DNA of 21,476 nucleotides from a virus (taxonomy: Duplodnaviria > Heunggongvirae > Uroviricota > Caudoviricetes): the IMG/VR virus record IMGVR_UViG_2526164632_000013; one strand, 5' to 3'. The translations under genes were made by a program, and so were the position numbers. The notes beneath the pieces are model-generated. The model did no database searches. It had not been told where the DNA came from and saw nothing but the letters and a program-made list of their open reading frames with translations. Below, one piece after another: positions 3,986 through 19,364 of the stretch. How positions within the stretch are numbered: the first letter of the stretch is position 1; every line of letters begins with the position of its first letter.

Positions 3986-4225
3986 CCCCACCAGGAGGAC
4001 CCGCAAAAATGATAATGGTTATCATTTTCAATGTAGTCCGGTTTCTTCCACCATCGCACCGGACAGGCGACTATGAGGGGACAACGCCGCGCTCCGTTAA
4101 CGCGGTAAACCCCGGTGTGTATCGTTTTTGATTATCCCCGCACACTCGCGCAGAGGAGTCTCCCTGTCGGGCTGCGGTCTCTGTTAATGAGGGAATACAG
4201 CGACGATACGGCGCATCAACAAAAC

Positions 4226-4693
4226 TTATTTCAGGCACTGAGTACGGATATATTCCTGCGCCCCTTCCAGTTGCTTGTGCATCGTCATCAGCCGCTCTCT
4301 GAGGGTGAAATAATCCCGTTCAGCGGTGTCTGCCAGTCGGGGGCCGGTTGCATTATCCACGCGGGCGGTGCCGGTGGCTTCACGCACGGGACCTGGACAG
4401 GTGGCGTTGATACGCAGGCGCTTACGACCAGCGGCAACGTCAGCGCGAAGAGTTTCATTTTCAGCTCTCGCATCGGCTAATTCCCTCGAGTATTTTGCAT
4501 CGAGCGCAGCAACATCACGCTGACGCATCTGCATGTCAGTAATTGCCGCGTTCGCCAGCTTCAGTTCTCTGACATTTTTGTCGCGCTGGGCTTTGTAGGT
4601 AATGGCGTTATCACGGTAATGATTCAGCCCCAGACTAAGCGCACCACAGGCCACCAGCATGACAATAATCACCACACACAGAACACGGTTCAT
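4226..4693 (-). CDS. Rz: Rz i-spanin
   Basis: From the internal ATG at 4693: [40 protein letters not shown]...[16 protein letters not shown]..., close to lambda Rz as recalled. The track ORF extends further 5' (to 4777), but that extension overlaps the upstream small ORF. Confidence 0.9.
4288..4473 (-). CDS. Rz1: Rz1 o-spanin lipoprotein, embedded in Rz in another frame
   Basis: 61 aa, [20 protein letters not shown] (lipobox LVVSAC) followed by a proline-rich segment ...[32 protein letters not shown], close to lambda Rz1 as recalled; lies entirely inside Rz. Confidence 0.85.
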
Positions 4694-4694
4694 A

Positions 4695-4781
4695 TCACCA
4701 CCAACGGATTGCCCAGACCAGAACAGCAATGGCCACAATACGAATGGCAAATGCCATTGCCCGAATAAGTTCAGCACTCAT
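4695..4781 (-). CDS. Tiny hydrophobic ORF D (28 aa), hypothetical
   Basis: [28 protein letters not shown]; its stop TGA is 1 nt before the Rz ATG (TGATATG). Not in the ORF track (under 60 aa). Confidence 0.25.
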
Positions 4782-4792
4782 CTTTTTAAAGT

Positions 4793-4915
4793 TCACGATT
4801 TCAGCGCAATGACCAGTTTTGCCAGCCCATATAGCATCGGAGACACAGCAATACCAACAGCCACCCACTTAATAGCAAAAGCCAGCGCTCTGCTGATGTC
4901 ATCAGTCACTGTCAC
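4793..4915 (-). CDS. Tiny hydrophobic ORF C (40 aa from a GTG start), hypothetical
   Basis: (M)TVTDDISRALAFAIKWVAVGIAVSPMLYGLAKLVIALKS; the GTG start overlaps the stop of ORF B (GTGA). It is the 3' part of track ORF 4793-5065. Confidence 0.25.
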   Translation of the reverse strand: MTVTDDISRALAFAIKWVAVGIAVSPMLYGLAKLVIALKS

Positions 4916-5043
4916 CCCAGCAGCCCCGACGAAGACAACATCACCCAGGCGAGGGACAGAAAAAGAGCAACCAGCATTAGTGAAAATGAAATACCGACAA
5001 TCACACACAGGACCTTTGCCGGCGTTATGAGTTTGTCTGACAT
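4912..5043 (-). CDS. Tiny hydrophobic ORF B (43 aa), hypothetical single-TM peptide
   Basis: MSDKLITPAKVLCVIVGISFSLMLVALFLSLAWVMLSSSGLLG; AAGGGG Shine-Dalgarno 5 nt upstream of the ATG; start is 2 nt after the stop of ORF A. Confidence 0.3.
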   Translation of the reverse strand: MSDKLITPAKVLCVIVGISFSLMLVALFLSLAWVMLSSSGLLG

Positions 5044-5045
5044 AG

Positions 5046-5141
5046 CTACCCCTTAATTGCCACAATTAACTGGGATACTACCCATAAAAAAGGGATGCTC
5101 CAGACCAGCAAAAATTTCCAGTTTGGTAATTGACTAATCAT
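5046..5141 (-). CDS. Tiny hydrophobic ORF A (31 aa), hypothetical
   Basis: MISQLPNWKFLLVWSIPFLWVVSQLIVAIKG; GGGAG 9 nt upstream of the ATG; 3' part of track ORF 5046-5258, whose 5' part spans a terminator hairpin. Confidence 0.25.
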   Translation of the reverse strand: MISQLPNWKFLLVWSIPFLWVVSQLIVAIKG

Positions 5142-5206
5142 GAGTCGCAACTCCCTAATCAGTTTGCTAAAATCAATCAAGGCAGCCTCCCATAGCTTAC
5201 TGCCAT

Positions 5207-5250
5207 AAAAACAAAACCCCGCTTGCTGCCAACAAACGGGGTTTTTACTT
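5207..5250. terminator. Bidirectional rho-independent-like hairpin downstream of the endolysin gene
   Basis: AAAACCCCG (5213-5221) pairs with CGGGGTTTT (5237-5245) around a 15-nt loop, with a T-run after the stem on the plus strand and an A-run before it (a T-run on the minus strand). Confidence 0.5.
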
Positions 5251-5335
5251 TTATTCACTTACGTTTCGCCAGTTCGCAGGATTTCGTGTTATCCGCCCGC
5301 GTGGCCATGCCTTATTTTTCAGCAAAATATTCTGC

Positions 5336-5869
5336 TTATCTGTCGATACCCCAGCACGCCAGCGCGCTCTCCTGGTCACGACGGGATACCTGACCGTAGC
5401 AGTTGTTTGAACGAATACGGCAGTCTCTGCCACCGTCCTTAATCCACCAGCGAATCGCCTCACACGCTCCCCTGCGATCACCTGCATTAATTCGTTTATA
5501 AAACGTCGACGGGAAACACTTACCGGGACCAATGTTGTACGGACAGAATGACGCGATCCCCGCTTTCTGGGGTTCGCTCAATGCCACTTTGATGTTTTTC
5601 TCCACCCATGCCAGCGCCTTATCACGCTCAATGGCGTTGACCTGGTCGCATTTTTCCTTCGACAGTTTCATACCGGGAAAAACGGGTTTTCCATCCACCA
5701 TCGTGGCCCCCCGACAGATGGTCCAGATGCCGGAACCATCGCGGTATGCCGTAGTGTGGTTACCCTCTTTTTCATCCAGAAACTGGTCGAGAATATCAGG
5801 CGCGGGCGCACCGACGGCAATCAGTGCCAGAACGGCAGCCGACAGGCCGTATCTGATTTTTGCGTTCAT
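5336..5869 (-). CDS. R: SAR endolysin (lysozyme, phage 21 R-like)
   Basis: 177 aa; N-terminal weakly hydrophobic Gly/Ala-rich segment YGLSAAVLALIAVGAPAP typical of signal-arrest-release endolysins; lysozyme-like core; sits downstream of a pinholin. Confidence 0.85.
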   Translation of the reverse strand: MNAKIRYGLSAAVLALIAVGAPAPDILDQFLDEKEGNHTTAYRDGSGIWTICRGATMVDGKPVFPGMKLSKEKCDQVNAIERDKALAWVEKNIKVALSEPQKAGIASFCPYNIGPGKCFPSTFYKRINAGDRRGACEAIRWWIKDGGRDCRIRSNNCYGQVSRRDQESALACWGIDR

Positions 5870-5932: not shown

Positions 5933-6283
5933 TTAAGGTTGTGATTCCGGAGGAGTCTTCAGAGAACCAGTAATTCTTCCTGGTAGCTTTCCTTTGTAGG
6001 TTATCCACACATTCTGCGCCTCTAAAATTACGGGGCACTTTTCCGGCGACTGCTCATCCCCTTCACATAACCCGGCAGCAACATCCAGGAAGACCTGTCT
6101 GATGCTCCTTCTGGCTGCTGCCTCATAAAACTCCAGCGCGGCACCTTCAACACGGTCCAGCGAGATGTCCAGGTCAAAAATTTCACCGTCAAAGCGTTTT
6201 TTGTCCCGTAACGCTAAAGTTACCGTAACTTTATTCTCAAAATTGCGGATCCCTTTCACAATCAGTTCATAGTTTTGAGTCAT
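5933..6283 (-). CDS. Hypothetical protein between holin and endolysin (the position ydfR occupies in K-12 Qin)
   Basis: 116 aa; GGGGAGAG Shine-Dalgarno 7 nt upstream of the ATG; starts 4 nt after the holin stop. Family not recognised from sequence alone. Confidence 0.65.
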   Translation of the reverse strand: MTQNYELIVKGIRNFENKVTVTLALRDKKRFDGEIFDLDISLDRVEGAALEFYEAAARRSIRQVFLDVAAGLCEGDEQSPEKCPVILEAQNVWITYKGKLPGRITGSLKTPPESQP

Positions 6284-6287
6284 TGAA

Positions 6288-6503
6288 TTACTCTCCCCGT
6301 GCCGCCTTACGACGGTCCTCTCTGATTTTGAAATACAGGTTAGTCAGATATGTCAGCAGCCCAAACAGCAGACTCCCCAGCACGCCTATTGCCGCCCACT
6401 GAGACGGGGAAACCCTGTCCAGCAACTGCAGGAACCAGTAGCCCGTTCCCACCGCTGACGTGGTGTATGACACACCTGTTGTGATTTTTTCCATCTGGTA
6501 CAT
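6288..6503 (-). CDS. S: Pinholin (S21-like class II holin) with dual-start motif
   Basis: 71 aa [71 protein letters not shown], near-identical over the TM and C-terminal regions to phage 21 S as recalled. Met1 and Met4 give the antiholin/holin dual start. The track's longer ORF (to 6608) spans a terminator and is rejected. Confidence 0.9.
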
Positions 6504-8515: not shown

Positions 8516-8963
8516 GAATCCTCCCGGCCGGGATAATATTGTGAGTAAAATGAGGAGCGGGCTGAAGTCCGGAAGTTACAGGACAATGGCAGAAGAGAGA
8601 CAACAGCCCGCAATACGAAAAAGGCCGCGCTATTGCGCAGAGTGATTACTGTCGGATATTATTCGCCAGCTGAAATATTACTTCACGTTTTGTTGTTTAT
8701 TCCTTGCCGCCCGCGTCTCCCAGCGCGGGCTTTTTTTGTCCATAAGAAAGCCCCTCCGGAGAGGGGCTGGAGAGTGGCGCTATGTGCCATTGCATGGTGC
8801 CGGGTGCCTCCCGGTGAATTCAGTACCAGCACCTGAATCCGCGATTATCCCATATACCTACTCGCTGATTGCCCCTCCGCACAGGGGGATTCACCATGCC
8901 AGTTTCTTTTAACAAACTCCCCGCAAAACAGACAACTGTCAACCGTCTGAATTGTGAGACATT

Positions 8964-9003: not shown

Positions 9004-9080
9004 TGGCGCGTTGTACTGGATTCGAACCAGTGACCGATTGCTTAGAAGGCAATTGCTCTGTCCGGCTGAGCTAACAACGC
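9004..9080 (-). tRNA. argO: tRNA-Arg (anticodon UCU)
   Basis: Manual fold: acceptor GCGTTGT/ACAACGC, anticodon stem ATTGC/GCAAT, loop CTTCTAA (anticodon TCT), T-arm GGTTCGAATCC, discriminator G, CCA encoded. Symbol assigned by position, following the ileZ-argN-argO order of Stx-phage late regions. Confidence 0.85.
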
Positions 9081-9093
9081 ATGATGCAGATAA

Positions 9094-9170
9094 TGGACCG
9101 CCATCGGGGACTTGAACCCCGCGCAGCCAGCTTCGAAGGCTGGCGCTCTTTCCTGATGAGCTAATAGCGG
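9094..9170 (-). tRNA. argN: tRNA-Arg (anticodon UCG by manual fold)
   Basis: Acceptor CCGCTAT/ATGGCGG (one G-U pair), anticodon stem CCAGC/GCTGG with loop CTTCGAA (anticodon TCG), T-arm GGGGTTCAAGTCCCC, CCA encoded. Symbol by position only. Confidence 0.75.
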
Positions 9171-9177
9171 TATGTGA

Positions 9178-9253
9178 TGGTGGCCCTTGCTGGATTTGAA
9201 CCAGCGACCTGGCGATTATGAGTCGCTCGCTCTCACCACTGAGCTAAAGGGCC
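9178..9253 (-). tRNA. ileZ: tRNA-Ile2 (anticodon CAU, AUA-reading ileX/ileZ-like)
   Basis: GGCCCTTTAGCTCAGTGGTGAGAGCGAGCGACTCATAATCGCCAGGTCGCTGGTTCAAATCCAGCAAGGGCCACCA is near-identical to E. coli ileX as recalled; anticodon loop CTCATAA. Confidence 0.85.
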
Positions 9254-13723: not shown

Positions 13724-13879
13724 TTACTCCTCAGGTTCGTAAGCTGTGAAGACAGCGACCTCCGTCTGGCCGGTTCGGATTCGTACCTCGCAGAGGTCTT
13801 TCCTCGTTACCAGTGCCGTCACTATGACGGTTAAACAGATGACGATCAGGGCGATTAACATCGCCTTTTGCTGCTTCAT
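13724..13879 (-). CDS. hok: Hok/Gef-family type I toxin (HokD/RelF-like)
   Basis: 51 aa MKQQKAMLIALIVICLTVIVTALVTRKDLCEVRIRTGQTEVAVFTAYEPEE, the Hok family signature; AAGGAG Shine-Dalgarno. An in-frame upstream ATG (13936) with its own Shine-Dalgarno gives a 70-codon mok-like frame. Confidence 0.85.
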   Translation of the reverse strand: MKQQKAMLIALIVICLTVIVTALVTRKDLCEVRIRTGQTEVAVFTAYEPEE

Positions 13880-14090
13880 AGCCTGCTTCTCCTTGCCTTT
13901 CGGCGCGTAAGAGGCTAACCTACGTTTGTGAAGCATAGATTGGGCCTCAGATTAATGTTAAGCGTCTTGCAGGACGCGTAATGTTAACTGGGGCTTTTCT
14001 CTGTCTGCCTTACGGTGGCATGCCCGAGGCAGACAGCCTCAAGCACCCGCAGCAATTCTACTTAACTCCCGTCACCTCGCCAATATAAAA

Positions 14091-19306: not shown

Positions 19307-19364
19307 TTTCTGGTGACGTTTGGCGGTATCAGTTTTACTCCGTGACTGCTCTGCCGCCGTTTTT
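19307..19364 (+). ncRNA. dicF: DicF small regulatory RNA (ftsZ-targeting)
   Basis: TTTCTGGTGACGTTTGGCGGTATCAGTTTTACTCCGTGACTGCTCTGCCGCC followed by GTTTTT matches the 53-nt DicF sequence as recalled; lies in a 570-bp non-coding gap between the ydfC-like and dicB-like genes, as in Qin. Confidence 0.8.

Follow-up and report, generated by a model that had tools for sequence, protein, structure and literature searches.

Lambdoid lysis cassettes are regarded as solved four-gene systems composed of holin, endolysin, Rz, and Rz1. In phage P2, a non-essential membrane protein, LysA, is encoded between the endolysin and the spanin-equivalent genes and is reported to affect lysis timing. Holins typically possess a charged hydrophilic cytoplasmic C-terminal tail, and their gene lies before that of the endolysin. 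Type I toxin–antitoxin loci, which are often prophage-borne, include hok/sok, symE/SymR, ibs/Sib, shoB/OhsC, and the B. subtilis prophage loci bsrG/SR4 and txpA/RatA; moron-type membrane exclusion proteins, such as HK97 gp15 and T4 Imm, are made from the prophage or early from their own promoters. Mu gp25, or "releasin" (DUF2730), is a small membrane-anchored helper of an endolysin of the signal-anchor-release (SAR) type, encoded near the endolysin and spanin genes; it comprises 99 amino acids (aa) in an N-out/C-in orientation, with a 73-aa acidic cytoplasmic domain (PMC9239132). Here, we analyze a 642-bp insert (4694-5335, minus strand) between the endolysin gene R, ending at 5336, and the spanin gene Rz, starting at 4693, in an E. 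coli prophage, a viral DNA stretch of 21,476 nucleotides (nt), IMG/VR record IMGVR_UViG_2526164632_000013, which in its whole length is termed the window. The insert carries four small open reading frames (ORFs), A to D, and we tentatively interpret it as an exchangeable accessory module of the late lysis operon, whose non-essential inner-membrane peptides may tune lysis.

An earlier note, made from the letters of the window, had placed an insert of about 640 bp at this junction and offered two readings of it: a cassette of small membrane peptides or the frameshift-decayed remnant of one roughly 140-aa gene with four transmembrane (TM) segments. Loci were compared around R homologues (80 viral contigs and 79 species genomes) and around long C, the longer form of ORF C present in relatives (80 viral contigs), with ORFs mapped in each; these sets are similarity-ranked and partly C-seeded, so that the architecture counts given below are not population frequencies. 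Across ~250 loci, no continuous ORF was found in the R–Rz interval, and the units occurred singly, in subsets, in the reverse order C-B, and together with an antirepressor-like gene. A C/D profile searched against 1.84 billion representatives retrieved 28 clusters, all of 20–87 aa. Because there is no continuous ORF, the units are shuffled, and C/D relatives reach only 20–87 aa, the single decayed four-TM gene is refuted by these comparisons and the peptide cassette stands. A P2 LysA-like ancestor would account for four hydrophobic segments in tandem at the position where P2 has lysA, and one 83-aa B-C fusion protein does occur, in one short assembly (P0193); however, each unit has its own start signal, and all copies of the array have identical length and intact frames, which makes decay scarcely credible. 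Specifically, the 15 arrays like that of the window (8 unique alleles) contain zero disrupted ORFs and zero indels, and their variable sites number 15 in 177 non-coding nt versus 5 in 471 coding nt, the latter being four synonymous and one non-synonymous. The peptide cassette is further supported by PHROG families, Shine-Dalgarno sequences (SDs) or coupled starts, coding-type substitution in B and long C, predicted helices, and a B homologue with ribosome profiling (RIBOseq) support.

In the 80 viral contigs whose R is closest, the R–Rz junction is empty in 33, where the R TGA overlaps the Rz GTG (GTGA), holds the A-B-C-D array in 18, and holds a single 45-aa ORF, A2, in 19; long C followed by B is found in 4 of them and 73 times in the C-seeded set. 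Further states are long C with D, long D alone, and an antirepressor-like gene with B, with C, with A-B, or with A-B-C-D, which brings the occupancy states to at least 10, counting the empty one. The small ORFs are drawn from an interchangeable set that hundreds of related prophages carry. The notion that R normally runs directly into Rz holds for the 33 contigs and for K-12 Qin and DLP12, whose junctions are empty, but occupied junctions are the majority among close relatives, where the insert is common rather than odd. Since ~42% of close relatives have no insert at all, the small-peptide genes are dispensable. A 691-nt stretch of E. coli 55989 (NC_011748.1 1117246-1117936) is 100% identical to the window; of 5,426 complete E. 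coli genomes, 585 contain at least 80% of this stretch and 2,076 contain parts of it.

Two distinct antirepressor-like genes (189 aa and 231 aa) were observed in R–Rz junctions (loci L003, L059, L064, L163, and L248). They lie behind a different terminator-like hairpin (GGCACCGTAATGGTGCC followed by a T-run) and are succeeded by A and/or B, the arrangement of most Shiga toxin (Stx) phages.

All four ORFs match PHROG profile hidden Markov models, every one annotated as "unknown function", and these uncharacterized PHROGs are the only families to which the ORFs could be assigned by sequence. No match to the small ORFs was obtained in Pfam (E <= 1), NCBIfam, or PADLOC (E <= 1; zero families for the queries A, B, long C, long D, and D), including no match of A, B, C, or D to the Pfam Phage_holin_* profiles at E <= 1, and none of the small ORFs is similar in DNA sequence to S, R, or Rz. 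In the NCBI pipeline annotation, B, C, D, and sometimes A appear as hypothetical proteins. The strong hydrophobicity ascribed to the ORFs by the earlier note was reproduced, with a mean Kyte-Doolittle value of 1.9–2.9 over the best 19-mer and one long hydrophobic helix predicted in each. Basic residues lie on the N-terminal side, so that each peptide is probably oriented with its N-terminus in the cytoplasm (N-in), a topology derived from hydropathy and charge only. The C-terminal flanks are 2–5 residues long (KG, ALKS, AIRWW) or, in B, uncharged. AlphaFold models built from family alignments place helices at residues 4–16 and 21–43 of A (mean predicted local distance difference test score, pLDDT, 79.7) and at 3–14 and 23–59 of long C (pLDDT 75); both peptides are thus predicted to consist of a short N-terminal helix, a loop, and one long hydrophobic helix. 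A fold search with the two models against BFVD and PDB gave no match, as expected for helix-loop-helix peptides.

ORF B, with a single hydrophobic helix at residues 11–36, has homologues in 103 database clusters, all from Escherichia, and a full-length B-family ORF is present in 276 phage records, mostly of Stx1/Stx2 phages, where it is usually unannotated. One family member, XECs191 of O157 Sakai, is one of the 465 intergenic ORFs for which Hucker et al. 2017 (PMC5597208) give RIBOseq support. It corresponds to ECs_1966, located between ant and Rz in prophage Sp10, and is 65% identical to the window B. In LB, its RNA reached 30.0 reads per kilobase per million (RPKM) and its footprints 12.6 RPKM, with a ribosome coverage value of 0.43, and the prediction for it was an inner-membrane location and a single TM helix (PMC5597208). 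The ratio of non-synonymous to synonymous substitution (dN/dS) was 0.38 for B (24 alleles, no stops; control frames 0.78 and 1.45) and 0.18 for long C (27 unique alleles, including Salmonella, no stops; control frames 0.78 and 3.7, with 136–172 stops), values pooled over related, non-independent, recombining alleles of very short genes; the variable sites of long C are distributed over the codon positions as 18/5/36. By these measures, the B and long C families are under purifying selection. As a separate matter, B was considered as a duplicated TM segment of Rz and this was rejected: the two share a GT(T/C)CTGTGTGTG motif, and the alignment score is ordinary against codon-shuffled controls (p 0.25).

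The lengths of 31, 43, 40, and 28 codons given earlier for A to D are correct for B and D, while C has 40 or 38 aa and A most likely has 44. The 31-aa form of A runs from ATG 5141 to the stop at 5046, and this ATG is internal, 13 codons downstream of the family start. GGGAGG sits 5 nt upstream of TTG 5180 and forms an anti-SD duplex of -10.2 kcal/mol, whereas no more than 5% of the region's candidate starts attain -8 kcal/mol. The A family aligns from the position of TTG 5180, occupied by TTG, GTG, or ATG in 8 lineages, with the consensus MIDFSKLIRELR.M..LP.WKF, and the phrog_6632 profile scores the longer A (70-aa form) at 1.3e-12 versus 6e-5 for the short form. These features point to TTG 5180, not ATG 5141, as the most likely start. 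Members of the family occur in six genera: Escherichia, Salmonella, Providencia, Citrobacter, Enterobacter, and Klebsiella.

All four tandem ORFs described earlier are present, but they do not represent four equal independent genes. ORF C matches PHROGs 1115, 3246, and 4493 at 6.4e-25, 2.4e-20, and 5e-17, D matches the same families at 3.8e-6 and 9.2e-5, and the two share an aligned core, A-x-AFAI-K/R. Their relatives are 50–60 aa long and open with a conserved basic segment (MEKYKRILLRLTMKNGLE... or MRKYKRFFLRLSIMKGIE...) that both window copies lack; the 60-aa long-form C relatives have MEKYKRILLRLTMKNGLELKAP in front, and D is truncated relative to forms of 50–57 aa, with long forms in L082, GER2, and phiSTEC1575. 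The alignments indicate that C and D are paralogues, N-terminally truncated in the window. C begins at the same GTGA overlap that is used as the Rz start in R-C-B-Rz relatives; its alternative start, GTG 4909, has an SD-like GGGGTGA and a better SD than GTG 4915. D lacks an SD (SD energy +0.3) and starts 11 nt past the C stop. The tails are swapped among families, ...AIKG* or ...ALKS* preceding another small ORF and ...RWW* preceding Rz, the terminal codons (RWW*, GLLG*) fall together with the SD or start of the gene that follows, and chimeric proteins exist in the database (P0219, P0212). A single superfamily for A, B, and C/D was not supported, as profile–profile comparison returned only a 14-column A-C tail match (E 0.011, probability 3.7%) and nothing for B; on the sequence alignments, A, B, and C/D are treated here as three families with swapped tails.

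The junctions between the ORFs suggest translational coupling, and those reported by the earlier note are all in the sequence: TAG-ct-ATG between A and B, the GTGA overlap between B and C, and TGA-t-ATG between D and Rz, together with the AAGGGG SD before B. The SD-like sequence of Rz, GGTGGTGA, lies within the last codons of D (SD energy -6.2). SDs are retained before A, B, and long C in each differing upstream context. Promoter and terminator calls are consensus matches; in the window scan, no same-strand promoter-like site was seen in or before the insert, and no terminator between D and Rz. The bidirectional terminator-like hairpin noted after R proved well founded, its stem at 5213-5245 folding stably on both strands with U-runs on both sides. 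The minimum free energy is -24.2 kcal/mol for the gene-strand RNA (z -5.4; 0 of 200 shuffles as good) and -15.3 kcal/mol for the opposite strand (z -3.1). A hairpin occupies the same place ahead of each A-family ORF in 8 lineages, and its pairing is kept despite lineage sequence differences (13 consensus pairs, 5 with double changes, in 8 sequences). Every "head" ORF, namely A, A2, long C, and long D, is preceded, 25–50 nt upstream of the SD, by a hairpin with A-run and T-run, and this is so in every context, also when Ant or a foreign endolysin lies in front; the window B, C, and D have no head elements.

Between the R stop and the hairpin lies a segment of ~80 nt, and 43 unique occupied-junction alleles open with identical sequence after the R stop. 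A 70%-identical copy is found in Salmonella (L164, 2828-2959), after an unrelated GH19 endolysin and before long C. A hypervariable patch was observed within the segment (…AAGGCATGGCCACGCGGGC… versus …GCGGTTTGCTCACACGGAC…). A coding role was rejected, as the 24-codon frame is interrupted in some alleles. Rfam returned nothing at gathering score in the interval, this segment included, and its sub-threshold matches there (OhsC, rnk leader, and others) were dismissed as terminator look-alikes.

From the heads, a cis-antisense RNA of ~75–95 nt is predicted; for A in the window it would be a plus-strand RNA of ~80 nt (from ~5180 to ~5256), complementary to the A start codon and SD. Its putative extended -10, TGCTAAAAT, is invariant in 8 lineages though neighboring codons have synonymous changes: GAT TTT AGC AAA and GAG TTG CGA are invariant, and the codons between and after them vary synonymously. 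In long C, codons 3–18 show 0/48 nt differences between E. coli and Salmonella versus 35/126 in codons 19–60 (Fisher p 3.5e-6), and among codons for the same amino acid, synonymous changes number 0/16 in the head versus 14/31 in the rest (p 0.0016). Antisense promoter-like sites are TAGTCA-18-TATACT (9/12) in long C and TGGACA-18-TATACT (10/12) in long D, each being the only promoter-like match in its region. The A site has a weak -35 and was not flagged by the window promoter scan. This nucleotide conservation could instead reflect a recombination linker or mRNA structure. The Sakai listing of Hfq-bound RNAs contains none in an R–Rz interval, and the supplements of the EDL933 transcription start site paper contain no matching sequence strings. 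From these features, a bolder possibility may be formulated, which we consider unlikely: that the head gene (A, or long C/D in relatives) is a mobile safety-locked unit, made of a bidirectional terminator, a ribosome-binding site (RBS), and an ORF in which the first dozen codons double as an antisense promoter. The antisense RNA would mask the RBS in lysogens and be overcome only by abundant antiterminated late mRNA, and toxin-like membrane perturbants would have been recruited, beside the spanin genes, as auxiliary lysis triggers or modulators.

Other antisense or small RNA candidates were also encountered. The only promoter-like site that the scan reports near the insert, at 5037-5066 (plus strand; CTGACA-18-CACAAT with TG), is antisense over the A stop and B start, and is probably noise, since ~2 such matches are expected by chance in the scanned region. 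AgvB and AsxR were discarded as small RNAs of the insert, being located in a moron site just after pR' and not between R and Rz (PMC4104026). EcOnc11 was likewise discarded, as it lies ~215 nt beyond Rz in a segment absent from the window. Tree et al. 2014 reported EcOnc11 and its homologues EcOnc10/12 as RNAs strongly bound by Hfq. In Sp10, Sp9, and Sp12, these RNAs lie antisense on the 3' side of ECs_1967, ~215 nt downstream of Rz, the EcOnc11 site being Sakai NC_002695.2 ~1946959-1947007, minus strand (L261 ~5460-5508; the old Sakai numbering is offset from the new by +140 here).

Members of the A and C/D families recur directly upstream of spanin-type genes in cassettes built of unrelated parts. 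Salmonella examples are a holin_3_1-family holin, GH19 endolysin, long C, and Rz, and a lysozyme, Ant, long C, and Rz; an Enterobacter cassette combines holin_8 and holin_3_7 holins, a GH19 endolysin, A, and an overlapping 92/63-aa gene pair. In a holin_3_1 cassette, A is followed by DUF2514, M15-endolysin cassettes also contain family members, and in one cassette, whose endolysin is GH108-like by eye only, long C and B precede a 65-aa lipoprotein. In cassettes without recognizable Rz (L213 2825-3022; L249 2149-2331), long C and B, or long D, are start/stop-coupled to a lipoprotein of 60–65 aa with the lipobox LVGC and three further cysteines, which may be an unrecognized outer-membrane lysis component or an exclusion lipoprotein. 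Outside lysis cassettes, A-family and C-family units were observed in a Klebsiella baseplate operon, in Citrobacter before gpJ, and in Salmonella after tail-fiber assembly genes (L254 2501-2638; L257 2001-2138; L166 2989-3201), and they keep their hairpin where checked. As they are also present in baseplate, gpJ, and tail-fiber contexts, the A/C units behave as small mobile units. Their association with the endolysin–spanin junction is strong, not exclusive.

The reading we put forward, with some hesitation, is that the four products of the insert are micro-proteins that span the inner membrane once, belong to three families (A; B; and the C/D paralogues), and would act as helpers, not essential parts, of lysis. 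Their synthesis would be limited essentially to read-through from pR' by Q-modified polymerase, a late-only expression inferred from the strong terminator ahead and the lack of a detectable same-strand promoter. Translation would begin at the A and B SDs and be carried on through C and D to Rz by start/stop coupling, and this chain would replace the direct R/Rz overlap of insert-free relatives. The peptides would sit in the inner membrane with the pinholin, the membrane-tethered endolysin, and Rz, where they would most likely adjust the timing or efficiency of the membrane step of lysis. Several points weigh against this. There is no homology to any known lysis protein; any effect on lysis must be optional, with 42% of close relatives as well as K-12 Qin and DLP12 devoid of the insert; and the dN/dS values are pooled ones. 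The Sakai RIBOseq signal of the B homologue is weak and comes from uninduced cultures. The endolysin–spanin junction may simply be a permissive insertion site, and C and D, lacking the family N-terminal helix and, in D, an SD, may be inert passengers. Finally, family members outside lysis cassettes, after tail-fiber assembly genes, before gpJ, or in a baseplate operon, fit a generic mobile "moron" equally well.

Such morons, expressed in the lysogen and altering the host inner membrane, for example by blocking DNA entry of superinfecting phages or by acting on a host membrane complex, would merely be tolerated at the lysis site. Presence/absence polymorphism and shuffling among near-identical prophages, members in tail and baseplate modules, use of the same site by the antirepressor-like gene, and a GC content slightly lower than that of the flanks all agree with this, as do the RNA and ribosome footprints of the B homologue in uninduced Sakai cultures, although that signal could stem from spontaneously induced cells. 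Yet no same-strand promoter-like site exists in or before the insert, the strong terminator lies upstream of the ORFs and not downstream, the ORFs are tightly coupled into Rz, and PADLOC gave no match, so we consider the idea plausible in outline but improbable. A further alternative is that A, or long C/D in relatives, is a membrane-damaging peptide silenced by a cis-antisense RNA, in the manner of a type I toxin–antitoxin unit serving prophage retention or abortive infection and not programmed lysis. The small hydrophobic ORFs suit it, as do the autonomous-looking pairing of hairpin and ORF at 25–50 nt from the SD in 8 lineages with very different neighborhoods, the invariant antisense TGCTAAAAT with promoter-like antisense matches at the exact spot, and the nucleotide-level conservation of long C codons 3–18 (0/48 versus 35/126). 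Against these stand a toxin mRNA without a promoter, ORFs embedded in and coupled to an operon, the weak and uncalled -35 of A, the absence of head elements from the window B, C, and D, and the absence of a listed Hfq-bound RNA in the R–Rz interval of Sakai; the conservation has the other possible causes named above, and the best Rfam antitoxin, OhsC, scores 20.1 bits (E 5.1) where the gathering score is 50, with the match lying on the gene (wrong) strand and essentially over the terminator only. On balance, such a unit is rather improbable.

Another possibility is that the ORFs are recombination scars serving as ribosome relays to the Rz start, with inert peptides. It is most plausible for the truncated C and D, which lack the conserved N-terminal segment of their family and, in D, an SD; moreover, the GTGA overlap from which C begins is where Rz starts in R-C-B-Rz relatives, terminal codons (RWW*, GLLG*) also provide the SD or start for the following gene, and chimeric ORFs (P0219, P0212) exist. 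However, the B and C families are constrained at the amino-acid level (dN/dS 0.38 and 0.18; codon positions 18/5/36), the A-family protein is conserved across six genera, hydrophobic helices and motifs such as A-x-AFAI-K/R would be unneeded for relaying, and insert-free relatives join R to Rz directly with no relay; for the insert as a whole we therefore give this explanation little credence. The accessory lysis module remains our preferred, if provisional, reading.

In the minus-strand operon, the order is S21-type holin, YdfR/DUF1327, R, the 642-bp interval, and Rz with Rz1, and the ORF list shows a hydrophobic SAR-like segment at the N-terminus of R (Table 1). The YdfR/DUF1327 gene, between holin and endolysin, represents a second occupied junction of the same cassette; the window copy is intact, that of E. 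coli 55989 is a pseudogene truncated at its C-terminal end, and K-12 Qin has the gene as well. Beyond Rz, the window and Sakai Sp10 share 189 nt (94.7%) and diverge at 4037, just before a near-perfect Fur-box-like palindrome at 4005-4029 (GAAAATGATAACCATTATCATTTTT), ~200 nt downstream of Rz, which was compared with what we take to be the Fur-box consensus, GATAATGATAATCATTATC. Elsewhere in the window, at 13874-14048 (minus), 19308-19359 (plus), 8738-8928 (minus), and 9007-9253 (minus), Rfam identified a hok/sok-type Sok, DicF, STnc100, and three tRNA genes; on the basis of the Sok match, the same prophage already has a classical type I toxin–antitoxin locus.

Table 1. Coordinates of the lysis operon genes and of the features assigned to the R–Rz insert.
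Feature	Position	Strand	Description
Class II (S21-type) holin	6288-6503	minus	Pfam PF04971, 9e-33
YdfR/DUF1327 gene	5933-6283	minus	Pfam PF07041, 2.8e-42
Endolysin R	5336-5869	minus	177 aa; Pfam PF00959 Phage_lysozyme, 7.7e-24; upstream edge of insert
Segment of ~80 nt after R stop	5257-5335	minus	in all occupied junctions; conserved core and variable patch
GC-rich hairpin	5205-5254	both	predicted intrinsic terminator readable both ways; core stem 5213-5245, A-run and T-run flanks (terminator scan)
Predicted antisense unit	5165-5256	plus	putative extended -10 TGCTAAAAT at 5165-5173, start ~5180, end in T-run ~5246-5256
ORF A	5046-5180	minus	44 aa (MIDFSKLIRELRLMISQLPNWKFLLVWSIPFLWVVSQLIVAIKG); most likely start TTG 5180; SD GGGAGG 5186-5191; phrog_6632
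ORF B	4912-5043	minus	43 aa; SD AAGGGG 5049-5054; phrog_4906, 4.5e-21
ORF C	4793-4915	minus	40 aa from GTG 4915 (GTGA overlap with B stop) or 38 aa from GTG 4909
ORF D	4695-4781	minus	28 aa; C paralogue; ends RWW*, TGA-t-ATG into Rz
Rz, inner-membrane spanin (i-spanin)	4226-4693	minus	155 aa; Pfam PF03245, 2.1e-51; downstream edge of insert
Rz1, outer-membrane spanin (o-spanin)	4288-4473	minus	embedded in Rz

The endolysin–spanin junction is thus occupied in most close relatives and, via family B, in 276 mostly Shiga-toxin phage records, by conserved micro-protein genes under selection that are without prior study. If the peptides do tune membrane collapse or the timing of lysis, they would influence burst size and also the release of toxin by Stx phages. 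If the antisense lock is true, it would be a compact new way to silence dangerous late membrane peptides in lysogens, a hybrid of a type I toxin–antitoxin locus and a lysis-cassette accessory gene. Such hybrids would be spread over lysis cassettes in six or more enterobacterial genera, and most Stx phages would have one through family B. A natural mutant series is offered by the modular set of A, A2, B, C, and D, with and without N-terminal helices; should nothing measurable emerge, these would be ordinary small hypothetical phage genes.

As for what is already known, the sequences are in databases, and one homologue has been reported as a translated novel gene: the existence of XECs191 was described, with no function (PMC5597208). 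It belongs with BP-4795 ORF50 to the B family, like the window B, but both stand alone after an ant-like gene and not in a four-ORF array. The searchable literature gave no description of genes between R and Rz and no main text printing these peptide sequences, and "The Cryptic Bacterial Microproteome" makes no mention of lysis or prophage. In that literature, four things appear undescribed: the modular way in which the junction is composed, the evidence for selection, the repeated location ahead of spanin genes, and the head of terminator and antisense promoter.

Compared with type I toxin–antitoxin loci, the insert is similar in its small hydrophobic ORFs and in a predicted antisense RNA that covers the RBS and ends at a terminator; it differs in having no dedicated toxin promoter, in an ORF that belongs to a late operon and is coupled to Rz, and in the absence of an Rfam antitoxin match. 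With exclusion morons it has in common that small proteins of the inner membrane are present in some phages and absent from others at fixed hot spots of otherwise collinear genomes, whereas, unlike HK97 gp15 and T4 Imm, no own promoter was seen and no PADLOC model matched. In the sense of Juhala et al. 2000, the variable presence of a moron at a fixed site is observed, but in the window scan an own upstream promoter and a downstream terminator are not, the terminator lying upstream. Holins and antiholins (S21 68/71, lambda S105/S107) are likewise small lysis-cassette membrane proteins and act by helix–helix contacts in the inner membrane; unlike them, the ORFs have no charged C-terminal tail and lie downstream of R, in a cassette that already has an S21-type holin. 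An i-spanin (Rz-like) role was rejected, because the peptides have no residues beyond the helix and so no periplasmic coiled-coil domain. In contrast to Mu gp25, the ORF family members are 28–60 aa long, probably N-in, and almost without an extramembrane part, they show no Pfam (DUF2730) match, and they also accompany endolysin classes other than the SAR-type lysozyme (GH19, M15). The position is the same as that of P2 LysA, but LysA is one multi-TM polypeptide, whereas here separate genes, each predicted to encode one helix, are shuffled between endolysin and spanin.

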